Assembly (NCBI RefSeq): GCF_988242995.1
Contig: NZ_OZ547043.1
DNA: 64,000 bases
Direction: 5' to 3' (one strand)
Part shown: positions 5,408 to 10,733 of the stretch, piece after piece
Layout of the letters: each line of letters opens with the position of its first letter
Position numbering within the stretch: position 1 is the first letter of the stretch
Translations under genes and position numbers: made by a program
Notes under the pieces: generated by a model
Told to the model about the DNA's origin: nothing
Databases searched by the model: none
What the model saw: only the letters and a program-made list of their open reading frames with translations

Positions 5408-7099
5408 TTACGCTGCTTTCGCTACTGCGTCCACTTCCGGACGTTTCAGGAAGGCATAGGCCAGACCCGCCACCAGCGTACCGGCAATAATGGCTACCAG
5501 GTAACCCAGTACCGGCGTAATAGCGCCAGGGATCAGCAGAACAAACAGACCACCGTGCGGTGCCATCAGTTTCGCACCAATCGCCATTGAGATTGCGCCA
5601 GTCAGCGCCCCACCCACGATACAGCACGGCAGCACACGCATCGGATCACGAGCAGCAAACGGAATTGCACCTTCCGAAATGAAGCACAGTCCCAATACCA
5701 GAGCGGCTTTGCCACCTTCCTGCTGCGCTTTGTCGAATTTGCGACGCGCCACCATTGTTGCCAGGCCCATTGCCAGCGGTGGCACCATACCTGCCGCCAT
5801 AATCGCCGCCATCGGGCCATAGGTTTGAGTACTCAGCAGACCCACACCGAATGCGTACGCTGCTTTGTTTACCGGACCGCCCATGTCAGTACACATCATG
5901 CCACCGAGGATCGCCCCCAGCAGAACCGCATTCGCAGTCCCCATGGTCTGCAGCCAGTGAGTCAACCCTTCGAGAATGCCAGCAACCGGTTTACCGATCA
6001 GGTAGATCATCGCCAGACCGACCACCAGACTGGAAATTAGCGGAATGATCAGAATCGGTTTCAGCGCCTCCATACTCTGTGGCAGTTTCAATTGCGTACT
6101 GATTAACTTCGCAATGTAACCAGCCAGGAAGCCCGCAATAATACCGCCAATGAAGCCAGAACCAGTGCTGACCGCCAGCATACCGCCAATCAGACCCGGC
6201 GTGAGACCCGGACGATCGGCAATGGAGAAGGCAATATAACCTGCCAGTACCGGCACCATCAGCGCAAAGGCTGAACCACCACCAATCTGCATCAGCGCCG
6301 CTGCCAACGTACCCGGCTCTTTAAACGCTTCGATACCAAAAGCAAAAGAAAGCGCGATACACAGACCACCTGCAACGACCATCGGCAGCATGTAAGAGAC
6401 GCCCGTCAGCAAGTGACGATAAGCGCCTGCACTCTCTTTCTTACCTTCAGTGGTCGCCGTTTGAGCTTTGCCCGCCGGTTCATACGGCGTTGCTTCAGCA
6501 ACCGCTTTATCCAGTTCCTGCGCGGTTTTCTTCAGCGCCAGACCGGTAGAGGTGCGATACATCGGTTTACCAGCAAATTTCGCCAGATCCACTTCAATAT
6601 CTGCCGCCACAATCACCAGATCCGCTGCGGCTACTTCTTCAGGGGTGATTGCATTACCCGCGCCAACCGAACCACGGGTTTCAACTTTCACCCACCAGCC
6701 ACGTTTTTTCGCTTCGGTTTCAATGGCTTCAGCCGCCATAAAGGTGTGTGCTACGCCAGTCGGGCAAGCAGTCACCGCAACTACGCGTTTCGGACCGCTG
6801 GCGGCAACCGGTGCTGTCGCAGCGACCGGCGCAGTGTAAGGTTTTGCATGGCCTTTGGCTTCACTCAGGAACAGCTCAGGGTGCGCAACTGCCCGGGAAA
6901 TATCGCCCAGCCAAACATTTTTACCGTTCAGCGCGCTGTCGTTCGGGATGGAATCACCGAGAACAATCGCCATTTCAGCGTCGTTCGGATTGTCGATGAT
7001 TTCCAGTTTTGCTTTTCGCGCCGCCGCGCCCAGCAGGGTCTTCGCCATATAGGCGCGTGCCTGACCGAGATTAGCGTCAATAATCAGCAGCGTTTTCAT
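5408..7099 (-). CDS. fruA: PTS fructose-specific EIIB'BC component
   Basis: 563-aa ORF; fruBKA operon synteny. Confidence 0.9.
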   Translation of the reverse strand: MKTLLIIDANLGQARAYMAKTLLGAAARKAKLEIIDNPNDAEMAIVLGDSIPNDSALNGKNVWLGDISRAVAHPELFLSEAKGHAKPYTAPVAATAPVAASGPKRVVAVTACPTGVAHTFMAAEAIETEAKKRGWWVKVETRGSVGAGNAITPEEVAAADLVIVAADIEVDLAKFAGKPMYRTSTGLALKKTAQELDKAVAEATPYEPAGKAQTATTEGKKESAGAYRHLLTGVSYMLPMVVAGGLCIALSFAFGIEAFKEPGTLAAALMQIGGGSAFALMVPVLAGYIAFSIADRPGLTPGLIGGMLAVSTGSGFIGGIIAGFLAGYIAKLISTQLKLPQSMEALKPILIIPLISSLVVGLAMIYLIGKPVAGILEGLTHWLQTMGTANAVLLGAILGGMMCTDMGGPVNKAAYAFGVGLLSTQTYGPMAAIMAAGMVPPLAMGLATMVARRKFDKAQQEGGKAALVLGLCFISEGAIPFAARDPMRVLPCCIVGGALTGAISMAIGAKLMAPHGGLFVLLIPGAITPVLGYLVAIIAGTLVAGLAYAFLKRPEVDAVAKAA

Positions 7100-7115: not shown

Positions 7116-8054
7116 TCAGTTAAAAGGTTGTAAGTCGACGCGCGCCATCATTGCGGCCAACTGCGGACGATCGGTAATACCCACATTGCTTTGACTTACC
7201 GCCAGGGCTGCAACAGCTGTCGCCAGACGCAGTGTGTGTTCACTGGATTCACGCATCAGCAAGCCATAAATCAGGCCACCAACCATAGAATCCCCTGCGC
7301 CAACGGTGCTTACGACATCGACTGACGGTGGTTTGGCGATCCATTCGCCGGAGGCATTAACCCAAAGCGCGCCTTCGGCACCCAGTGAAATAACGACATG
7401 CGCGATACCTTGTTCACGCAGCGCATGCGCAGCTTCAATCACATCTTTCATTTCAGGCAGTTTACGGCCCGCCCAGATTTCCAGCTCGCGGCGGTTAGGT
7501 TTCACCAGCCACGGTGCCGCTTTCAAACCTGCCACTAACGCTTCACGGCTACTATCAAAGATAATGCAAGGACACTGACTACGCAGGCGAGTCATCCAGT
7601 CGGTGAACGCTTCCGGGCTGACGCCTGACGGTAAGCTTCCGCTGACACAGACCATATCGAACTGACCGAGCCAGCTCAGAGAATCAGTCACAAAGCGTTC
7701 CCAGTCGGCGGGGGTAACTTCAAAACCCGAGAAGTTGAAGTCGGTCACTTCGCCGTCTTTTTCCGTCAGCTTAACGTTAATTCGGGTGCGCCCCTGTACA
7801 ACCTGGAAACGGTTGGCAATGCCCAGCTCGCTGAACAGTTGCTGAAAACCATCCTGATTGTCTTTACCGAGGAAGCCGCCAACGGTGACATCAATTCCCA
7901 GGTCTTTTAATACTTTGGCCACGTTGATGCCTTTACCCGCCGCATGCAGACCGGTGGTTTTCACCAGGTTCACTTCGCCGCGTTCAATTTCCGGGCAGAA
8001 ACCAACAAGGTCATAAGCCGGATTAAGGGTGATAGTAGCAACACGTCTGCTCAT
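7116..8054 (-). CDS. fruK: 1-phosphofructokinase
   Basis: 312-aa ORF, PfkB family; synteny. Confidence 0.9.
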   Translation of the reverse strand: MSRRVATITLNPAYDLVGFCPEIERGEVNLVKTTGLHAAGKGINVAKVLKDLGIDVTVGGFLGKDNQDGFQQLFSELGIANRFQVVQGRTRINVKLTEKDGEVTDFNFSGFEVTPADWERFVTDSLSWLGQFDMVCVSGSLPSGVSPEAFTDWMTRLRSQCPCIIFDSSREALVAGLKAAPWLVKPNRRELEIWAGRKLPEMKDVIEAAHALREQGIAHVVISLGAEGALWVNASGEWIAKPPSVDVVSTVGAGDSMVGGLIYGLLMRESSEHTLRLATAVAALAVSQSNVGITDRPQLAAMMARVDLQPFN

Positions 8055-9184
8055 TATGCGCCCTCCCCAAGACCAGCAGCGATAGCGTCGCCGATTGCTT
8101 TCAGCGCCTGTTCAGCATCTGCACCCTGGGCGGTAAAGCGTAGGCGATGACCTTTCTTAACGCCAAGTGCCACAACTTTCATCAGACTACGTCCGTTTGC
8201 CGGTTTGCCGGTGCCATCAAGGTTTGTCACGGTAATATCACTGTTAAATTGTTTAATGGTATTGACCAGCATGGTACCTGGACGAGCATGCAGGCCGTGT
8301 TCATTGCGCACCACAAACTCCGCGCTTAACACGTCGTCGGTCGGCGCATCATCGCTGGTCAGCAACGCCAGCAACGTTGCCGCATCCGCTTTCAGCAAGC
8401 GGTCAGCTTTATTGTCGAGTAACAAATCAGCGAGACGCTTTAGAACCGCAATGGGCTGATCGTCATTCATCGCCACACTCACCAGCATGGCTGCCGTTTC
8501 GCCGTCCACATCAAAAGCATTTGCCGCACGGCTTACCGCAATCGCGCTACGCAGATTGCCTTCGGCACTATCGCTCAGCCAGATACCCTGTCCGAGGTTC
8601 AGCGGTTGTTCATTGATGGCTTTGGTGACGAAAGTGGCGTCAACTGCCCCCGCCTCTTTCAGACGAGCAGCGTTCAGCGCCTGAAGAGTCAGCAGATCGC
8701 TGGCGACGATATCCAGCGTCAGCATTTCGTTGTCGAGCTTCAGCTGCTCACTCTGCTTTTCGCCCATCAGCAATGCGCGAAGTTCTTCTGCTGTTGTTGC
8801 TGACTTCAGTTGTTCAGCAACGGAATCATCGCTCAGTACGTGGGTCAGCTGGCGTAGCAGGCCCAGATGTTCATCCGAGCTGGCAGCAATACCGATCGCC
8901 ACGTACGCTACCTGGCCGTCACCCCAGGTGACGCCTTCCGGGAACTGAAATACCTGAACGCCGGTTTTCAGCACCTGATCGCGGGTGTCGGTAGTGCCGT
9001 GTGGAATAGCAATACCATTGCCGAGGAACGTAGAGGTTTGCTGTTCGCGCGCCAGCATGCCATTGACGTAGCCTTCAGCTACATTACCGGCCTGCACCAG
9101 CGCCGCAGCGACCTGGCGAATCGCCTCTTCTTTGTCTCCGGCCTTTTCGCCCGGATGGATGTCCTGTACGGATAACTGGAACAT
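8054..9184 (-). CDS. fruB: PTS fructose-specific EIIA/FPr fusion protein
   Basis: 376-aa ORF; HPr-like C-terminal domain; synteny. Confidence 0.9.
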
Positions 9185-9270
9185 AGTTCTCCTCTCTTGC
9201 TGAATTGAAACGATTCAGCTTCTATGAGAAAAAAAGCGCCAACCTGGCTTAGGGTTAAAGACAAGATCGC

Positions 9271-9284
9271 GCTGAAACGTTTCA
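9271..9284. promoter_or_regulatory. Cra (FruR) operator in the fruB promoter region
   Basis: Palindrome gctgaaacgtttca matches the Cra consensus TGAAWC half-sites; lies 87 bp upstream of fruB start. Confidence 0.7.
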
Positions 9285-9551
9285 AGAAAGCATAATACTT
9301 CTGTTTCAGCACGCAAGGAAAGCCGTAAAGTTATGAGCAAAAGTTTGATGTGCTGCACAATTTTTTGTCATTTTTCCTAATTGCTGATGGGAAAATCCGT
9401 TATCAGCAATTTCATTTCAGCAGCGTCAGCAGCCAATCAGCAACAGTGAAATGGCATTTTGATTATTCGTGGCGCTTTTGATTTCGCTGTCTGTTTATTT
9501 TCTGACAAGCAGCGTAAACTCCGCGTCTTCCTCTTCCAGTGATCGACCAGC

Positions 9552-10733
9552 ATGCATAACTCCCCCGCAGTCTCCAGCGCGAAATCGTTTGATCTGACCT
9601 CGACGGCGTTTTTAATCGTTGCCTTTCTCACCGGTATTGCGGGCGCTCTGCAAACCCCGACACTCAGTATTTTTCTTACCGATGAAGTACATGCCCGTCC
9701 GGCGATGGTGGGATTCTTCTTTACCGGCAGCGCTGTCATTGGGATTCTGGTGAGTCAGTTTCTCGCCGGGCGCTCTGATAAGCGCGGCGATCGCAAATCG
9801 CTGATTGTCTTTTGCTGCCTGTTAGGCGTGCTGGCCTGCACTCTTTTTGCCTGGAATCGCAACTACTTTGTTTTGCTATTCGTTGGCGTCTTTCTTAGCA
9901 GCTTTGGCTCGACTGCTAACCCGCAAATGTTTGCCCTCGCCCGTGAACATGCTGACAAAACCGGACGTGAAGCGGTGATGTTCAGCTCTTTTTTACGCGC
10001 TCAGGTTTCACTGGCATGGGTCATTGGCCCGCCGCTGGCTTATGCCTTAGCGATGGGTTTCAGCTTTACAGTAATGTATCTGAGCGCAGCGGTAGCGTTT
10101 ATTGTTTGCGGCGTGATGGTGTGGCTGTTTTTACCGTCGATGCAAAAAGAACTTCCACTGGCGACCGGCACGGTTGAAGCGCCGCGCCGTAACCGTCGCG
10201 ATACGCTGCTGCTGTTTGTCATTTGTACATTGATGTGGGGCTCGAACAGCCTGTACATCATCAACATGCCGCTATTTATTATCAACGAACTGCATCTTCC
10301 CGAGAAACTGGCCGGTGTGATGATGGGAACCGCCGCCGGGCTGGAAATCCCGACCATGTTGATTGCCGGATATTTCGCCAAACGTCTGGGTAAGCGTTTC
10401 TTAATGCGCGTTGCTGCCGTGGGTGGCGTCTGTTTTTACGCAGGAATGCTGATGGCGCATTCACCTGTCATTCTGTTGGGCTTGCAGCTGCTTAATGCTA
10501 TTTTTATTGGCATTCTGGGCGGCATCGGGATGCTCTATTTTCAGGATTTGATGCCCGGTCAGGCAGGTTCAGCCACCACGCTCTATACCAACACGTCGCG
10601 CGTGGGCTGGATCATCGCAGGATCAGTGGCGGGCATCGTCGCCGAGATCTGGAATTATCACGCTGTGTTCTGGTTCGCGATGGTGATGATTATCGCCACT
10701 CTGTTTTGCTTACTGCGGATTAAAGATGTTTAA
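9552..10733 (+). CDS. setB: Sugar efflux transporter B (MFS)
   Basis: 393-aa ORF, MFS-like; synteny. Confidence 0.85.

Follow-up and report, generated by a model that had tools for sequence, protein, structure and literature searches.

A Conserved Cra Operator Pair and an Intrinsic Terminator in the fruB Leader of Escherichia coli

Introduction

The divergent spacer between fruB and setB carries a short palindrome of the type bound by Cra (FruR), and this raises the question whether the palindrome is the operator through which the fructose operon is repressed, and whether other elements of the fruB leader may share in the control. The operon, fruBKA, is the founding target of Cra (PMC11157272, PMC5888115).

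The locus has been analyzed here in a window of 64,000 nucleotides (contig NZ_OZ547043.1 of NCBI RefSeq assembly GCF_988242995.1), to the whole length of which all positions refer. In this window, the spacer of the E. coli chromosome between the two genes is 367 bp long (9185–9551), and the genes and other features of the locus are collected in Table 1. The strain is not K-12: three of 391 spacer positions, one of them 9220, differ from a K-12-like genome. The 801 bases around the palindrome match 5417 of 5426 complete E. coli genomes, in every case on the chromosome.

Table 1. Genes and regulatory features around the fruB leader, in window coordinates.
Feature	Position	Strand	Description and basis
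fruA	5408–7099	minus	after fruK; RefSeq annotation
fruK	7116–8054	minus	after fruB; RefSeq annotation
fruB	8054–9184	minus	first gene of the fruBKA operon; open reading frames and RefSeq annotation
Predicted leader helix	9190–9230	minus	UUCUC (9230..9226) pairs with the Shine-Dalgarno GAGGA (9194..9190); alifold consensus
O2 (fruBdistal) Cra operator	9206–9219 (core 9206–9217)		GCTGAATCGTTTCA on the fruB-sense strand; published match and conservation
Intrinsic terminator	9228–9272	minus	hairpin 9272..9236, U7 9235..9229, 3′ end at C 9228
O1 (fruBproximal) Cra (FruR) operator	9271–9284		identical to the published operator and to the O-cra consensus; conserved
Putative fruB promoter	9289–9316	minus	−35 TTGCGT (9316..9311), 16-nt spacer, −10 TATGCT (9294..9289)
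CRP-box-like site	9344–9359 (centre 9351.5)		fruB-sense TGTGC-AGCACA-TCAAA; conserved island
setB	9552–10733	plus	open reading frames and RefSeq annotation

The Operator O1 and Its Identity

The sequence at 9271–9284 is GCTGAAACGTTTCA, or gctgaaacgtttca when written with the palindrome centre, and it lies 87–100 nt upstream of the fruB ATG. An initial annotation of the DNA had called it a perfect TGAAAC/GTTTCA palindrome; this holds for the 12-mer at 9273–9284 (TGAAACGTTTCA) and not for the whole 14-mer, as the GC flank (9271–9272) has no counterpart on the other side. In the 64 kb the exact 14-mer is found a single time, against no occurrence in 100 dinucleotide-preserving shuffles, and its analytical expectation is about 5e-4 occurrences. 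When up to two mismatches to the 14-mer are allowed, the sole further site in the 64 kb is GCTGAATCGTTTCA, on the minus strand at 9206–9219. Similarly, zero-mismatch matches to the relaxed core TGAAWCGWTTCA are found in the window only at 9206–9217 and 9273–9284, and with two mismatches there are five matches elsewhere, which is the chance level (seven found against 10.1 expected).

The natural Cra operator “fruBproximal” is given as TTCTTGAAACGTTTCAGC in Table 1 of PMC11157272, where it is reproduced from Ramseier et al. (1993), and this is the exact reverse complement of window positions 9271–9288. The fruBproximal sequence served there as the Cra operator in biolayer interferometry and AFM (PMC11157272). 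The consensus O-cra in the same table is GCTGAAACGTTTCA, to which the window 14-mer corresponds at 14 of 14 positions. O1 also agrees with the Cra consensus GCTGAAnCGnTTCA and its palindromic TGAAAC/GTTTCA half-sites; elsewhere the consensus is written as TGAAAC-GTTTCA (PMC8088597) or, from ChIP-exo and RegPrecise, as gcTGAAtCGaTTCAgc (PMC5888115).

The initial annotation had placed a Cra-consensus site in the fruB-setB divergent spacer and taken it for the repression site of the fructose operon. The location is borne out by the open reading frames and the RefSeq annotation, the consensus match is complete, and the role is supported by the identity with the published operator. The comparison with published fruB operators that it proposed ends in identity with fruBproximal, so that the refuting case, a mapped site elsewhere and none at this sequence, does not hold. 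It was also correct in regarding the site as a confirmation rather than a novelty: O1 is the Cra operator of fruBKA already described, and nothing new.

The Second Operator and the Conservation of the Pair

The single operator noted in the initial annotation is real, but a second one was missed: O2, or fruBdistal, whose core centre (9211.5) lies 67 bp from that of O1 (9278.5). The published fruBdistal, GAGGCTGAATCGTTTCAA in the same Table 1 after Ramseier et al. (1993) (PMC11157272), is the reverse complement of window positions 9203–9220 except for position 9220. This position adjoins O2; the window has a T there, K-12 and BL21 a C, and the GAG versus GAA difference in the flank from the published oligonucleotide is due to this T/C polymorphism. 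The polymorphism divides the complete E. coli genomes into rough halves, with the window allele context carried by 2583 of 5417; a 40-bp query for O2 matched only these 2583 genomes because the polymorphism breaks the megablast seed.

Both operators are conserved in sequence, position, and spacing. Within E. coli, O1 is exact in at least 5404 of the 5417 complete genomes holding the locus (at least 99.8%), as counted with a 40-bp query in which every 28-mer seed was forced to span O1, and the O2 core is exact in at least 5375 of the 5417 (more than 99%), as counted with a 30-bp query that spans the core and is shifted off position 9220. Beyond the species, loci were fetched by FruB with one genome per species, yielding 80 Enterobacteriaceae loci with 80–99% protein identity. 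The O1 core is present in 80 of 80 of these other species at −98 to −103 from the fruB ATG, and the O2 core likewise in 80 of 80 at −31 to −37, with a spacing between the two of 66–68 bp throughout. Variation of O1 is limited to the first T, in six species, and that of O2 to the two central W positions, as the Cra consensus permits. In the profile of 81 sequences, 13 of the 14 positions of O1 are at least 97.5% identical, and the bases on either side drop to 10–60%.

Promoter, CRP Site, and Mode of Repression

Upstream of O1 in the fruB sense, the conserved sequence cTTGcgt is followed at a distance of 16–17 nt by a second hexamer, TATGCT in Escherichia and AAGACT in most of the other genera, and the last T, at 9288, never varies; CTTG of the −35 element is also invariant in 81 sequences. 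A sigma-70 consensus promoter scan of 9100–9620 returned no promoter, and the assignment of the promoter is therefore based on the conserved hexamers only. From their placement, the fruB transcription start is predicted near 9280–9285, which is either the promoter-side border of O1 or a few bases into the operator. In the supplements of the SMRT-Cappable-seq data fruB is absent, and those of the Term-seq data contain no coordinate near the predicted start. The description of O1 as lying upstream of fruB is thus right with respect to the ATG and not with respect to the promoter, as O1 would be in the leader, at or just downstream of the transcription start. This placement is in line with a report on enteric bacteria, in which the FruR sites lie downstream of the fru transcription start and fructose-1-phosphate releases the protein (PMC7897506).

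Farther upstream, an AAnTGTGC-N6-TCnAA island is kept in 81 sequences. A single CRP site in the fruBKA-setB spacer activates both genes (PMC3105977), and a CRP site has been placed about 60 nt ahead of the start of fruB transcription (PMC8088597). The reported site is probably the conserved island centred at 9351.5.

O1 is almost certainly the promoter-proximal Cra operator of E. coli fruBKA that represses the operon without fructose. In the proposed mechanism, a Cra dimer would occupy the O1 palindrome in the absence of fructose, at or just downstream of the start, and hinder RNA polymerase, and a second dimer would sit on O2, 67 bp further down the leader. On fructose, transport by fruBA would produce fructose-1-phosphate, which would bind Cra and lower its affinity to DNA, and the operon would be induced. 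Cra binding, repression, and induction by fructose-1-phosphate are drawn here from the literature, to which the present analysis adds the sequence identity, the non-chance occurrence, and the conservation of the site. The position relative to the start, and hence the occlusion mechanism, is predicted from the sequence. Copies of OfruB inserted in synthetic promoters do repress them (PMC9948231), and looping by Cra at fruB has been put forward as a hypothesis only (PMC11157272). A caveat for pure occlusion is a very abundant short leader RNA detected by Term-seq in LB with no added fructose (PMC7815308), so that either initiation would not be fully blocked or the RNA would be very stable.

An Intrinsic Terminator between the Operators

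The 51 bp between O1 and O2 encode a hairpin and a U7 tract, and the base of the stem is built from the GC flank of O1. The region 9228–9272 is an intrinsic terminator in the fruB leader, a little-noticed element that is more interesting than the operator. The supplements of the Term-seq study map a minus-strand 3′ end to MG1655 position 2263539 (PMC7815308), which lies 44 nt ahead of the fruB ATG and corresponds exactly to window position 9228. In the two conditions this end collected 218,310 and 431,335 reads; its Rho score is 0.26 (“No”), and as an intrinsic terminator it is scored 9.6 (PMC7815308). The “characterized element” column is empty for it, and fruB does not appear in the main text (PMC7815308). 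No Rfam family matches the fruB leader at E-values up to 10, and literature searches on the fruB leader or 5′ UTR found no paper discussing the terminator. A simple terminator scan of 9100–9620 missed it, as its stem is interrupted.

The leader segment starting from the GC flank of O1 forms a hairpin in all 81 sequences, which comprise 73 distinct hairpin sequences, with free energies of −10.4 to −21.7 kcal/mol (median −14.5) against −7.2 ± 2.8 for shuffled sequences. The E. coli hairpin (−14.2 kcal/mol) is directly followed by U7, and at least six U are found within 8 nt after the hairpin in 62 of the 81 sequences. Furthermore, compensatory changes are observed in three of the six pairs of the base helix (52 alignment cells), where the pair states are C-G/U-A/U-G in 31/26/21 cells, C-G/U-A in 43/22, and A-U/G-C in 63/4. 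The covariation score of 0.187 exceeds those of the shuffled (0.125; 0 of 500 reach 0.187) and slid (at most 0.087) controls, and the G-U wobbles in the helix fit the fruB-sense RNA only.

The consensus fold of the leader has two helices, which are compatible and not alternatives. In the second helix, the UUCUC in which the U tract of the terminator ends is predicted to pair with the Shine-Dalgarno sequence, and a GCUGA/UCAGC hairpin that O2 and an invariant TTCAGC at 9199–9204 can form would be enclosed in it. One pair of the UUCUC-GAGGA helix changes from U-A to A-U in seven species, and the remaining pairs are invariant. The minimum-energy fold of the E. coli leader has the same pairing, with a z-score of only −1.8. 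We hold with weak to moderate confidence that the end of the U tract may mask the Shine-Dalgarno sequence by this pairing. As for a regulated attenuator or a riboswitch, no alternative antiterminator, leader peptide, or ligand-binding fold is evident in the leader.

It is possible, although we would rather doubt it, that the operators and the leader terminator form one composite switch in which most transcripts are stopped before the ATG. O2 is 8 bp beyond the mapped 3′ end, and Cra bound there might be a roadblock by which termination is raised. A different possibility is that the abundant leader RNA (about 55 nt) might serve as a regulatory small RNA.

A small ORF on the plus strand at 9224–9295 (MRKKAPTWLRVKDKIALKRFKKA), antisense to the leader, was considered as the cause of a conserved CTCAT and rejected: its length varies from 7 to 53 aa between species, and its anchoring start motif ATGAGAAAAAA is missing in 34 of the 81 sequences, so that it is not conserved.

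The Published 67-bp Deletion

A 67-bp deletion recurrent in laboratory evolution of BL21(DE3) has been described as the loss of a Cra binding site, with fru expression raised more than 2-fold (PMC10101011). The deleted sequence (TGAAACGATTCAGCC...GATCGCGC) corresponds to window 9206–9272, which spans one operator period exactly, with the 7-bp direct repeat TGAAACG at its borders. The deletion keeps a perfect 12-bp core at the position of O1, and takes away the GC flank, O2, the entire terminator, and the anti-Shine-Dalgarno segment. Because it spans the terminator and the anti-Shine-Dalgarno segment, its effect would not be assignable to Cra alone. In addition, as the operon is derepressed with a core operator left in place, O1 alone, once the GC flank, O2, and the structured leader are gone, is insufficient for full repression.

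Alternative Explanations

Short palindromes do occur by chance, and the two-mismatch core matches elsewhere in the window are at the level expected from it. The probability that the palindrome is a functionless chance occurrence is nevertheless negligible: the shuffles never produce the 14-mer, a second zero-mismatch core stands 67 bp off in the same spacer, and the presence of both operators in 80 of 80 species and in more than 99% of E. coli genomes refutes it. Another possibility is that O1 is bound mainly by a different regulator of the LacI/GalR family. The PurR operator has a central AAACGTTT in its box core, and the centre of O1 resembles it. The outer TGAA/TTCA and the GC flank, however, follow the Cra pattern, and the sequence as a whole is the Cra consensus. 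Main binding by PurR or the like is therefore highly improbable, the more so in the context of a fructose operon and with published Cra binding assays having used the same sequence (PMC11157272).

The near-invariance of 9271–9284 might in part come from a role at the RNA level, where these positions form the 5′ end of the leader and their GC flank the base of the stem. In the conserved hairpin the two flank bases, G9272 and C9271, are paired with C9236 and G9237, the corresponding alignment columns (25–26 with 61–62) contain 64 G-C plus 12 G-U cells and 77 C-G cells, and the short leader RNA exists and is abundant by Term-seq (PMC7815308). Such a contribution is still rather unlikely, because the stem uses only two of the 14 operator positions and the 12-bp core, which the consensus structure leaves unpaired, is conserved best of all; moreover, the half-sites of O2 are equally conserved, with variation at the two central W positions only, as in the Cra pattern. 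For the GC flank itself, conservation could be due partly to the RNA stem rather than to Cra. O1 might also be a shared operator that regulates the divergent setB, since it sits in the common 367-bp spacer, from which both CRP (PMC3105977) and FlhDC (PMC9962212) are reported to act on the two genes, and across which half-site-like GCTGA pentamers are enriched (nine against about 1.8 expected). We regard this as distinctly unlikely, as O1 is 268 bp from the setB ATG, beyond the fruB promoter and the CRP site, Cra control of setB is not reported in the literature cited here, and setB is absent from the main text of the ChIP-exo study (PMC5888115).

Other Features of the Spacer and the Window

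The pentamer GCTGA, the outer part of the Cra half-site, has nine copies in 9185–9551 when both strands are counted, where about 1.8 are expected from the window background and about 0.6 from composition shuffles, and there are 6–10 copies in all of the 80 other species. One copy belongs to a GCTGAAAC half-site at 9303–9310, between the putative −35 and −10 elements of fruB, and another is the conserved GCTGACGnnGCTGAA at 9413–9430. An inverted repeat, TTGCTGAT-N11-ATCAGCAA, is located at 9381–9407, upstream of the fruB promoter; its arms change jointly in other genera (GCTGACGC-N7-GCGTCAGC), where a run of T frequently comes after it on the fruB-sense strand. The repeat may be a hairpin, or an operator close to the setB promoter.

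Outside the spacer, a full-length Rfam match to the C4 antisense RNA (RF01695; 76 bits against a gathering threshold of 45) is found at 34388–34475 on the plus strand, antisense to the 5′ part of the autotransporter gene yejO (32079–34670, minus strand) and near a tRNA-Pro gene (31901–31977). The L25 ribosomal protein leader (Rfam RF03131) is at 28160–28185 on the plus strand, just ahead of rplY (28207–28491), as expected.

Comparison with Known Systems

The closest counterparts are the fruB operators of E. coli and Salmonella (Ramseier et al., 1993, as given in PMC11157272): as far as they are reproduced in that source, O1 is identical and in the same gene context, and O2 is identical save for the flank at 9220, so that what the window carries is this known element in a further E. 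coli strain. The lac operon, with its O1 and auxiliary operators, is likewise controlled by a member of the LacI/GalR family whose affinity for DNA is reduced by an inducer, and its palindromic operator at the transcription start, with another one farther downstream, has a counterpart in the arrangement predicted for fru. The fru operators differ from it in that they are 67 bp apart, that is, about 6.4 helical turns and not obviously in phase, and in that the DNA between them encodes a terminator hairpin, which lac does not have.

In Vibrio cholerae, fruB is controlled by FruR of the same regulator family through a similar palindrome, TGAATC-GATTCA, also in a fructose operon with an upstream CRP site (PMC7897506, PMC8088597). 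[quoted passage not shown] With the 5′ UTR terminators and attenuators of E. coli found by Term-seq (PMC7815308), the fruB leader shares the hairpin, the U7 tract, a Rho-independent 3′ end, and high read numbers; it differs from these elements in that a repressor operator stands on either side of its terminator and in the predicted pairing of its U tract with the Shine-Dalgarno sequence.

Implications

O1 itself merely confirms that the window contains the E. coli fru locus, and what the initial annotation recognized is a textbook site. The wider relevance comes from the extensive use of Cra and fruB, both as a model for allostery in the LacI/GalR family and as a part for biosensors of glycolytic flux. 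If the operators and the terminator do form a composite switch, the published phenotypes of “Cra-site deletion” would partly be terminator phenotypes. If much of the tight off-state is due to the leader terminator and to masking of the Shine-Dalgarno sequence, operator-deletion experiments, among them the 67-bp deletion, would need to be read again, and biosensor designs that copy the operators alone would also be affected.
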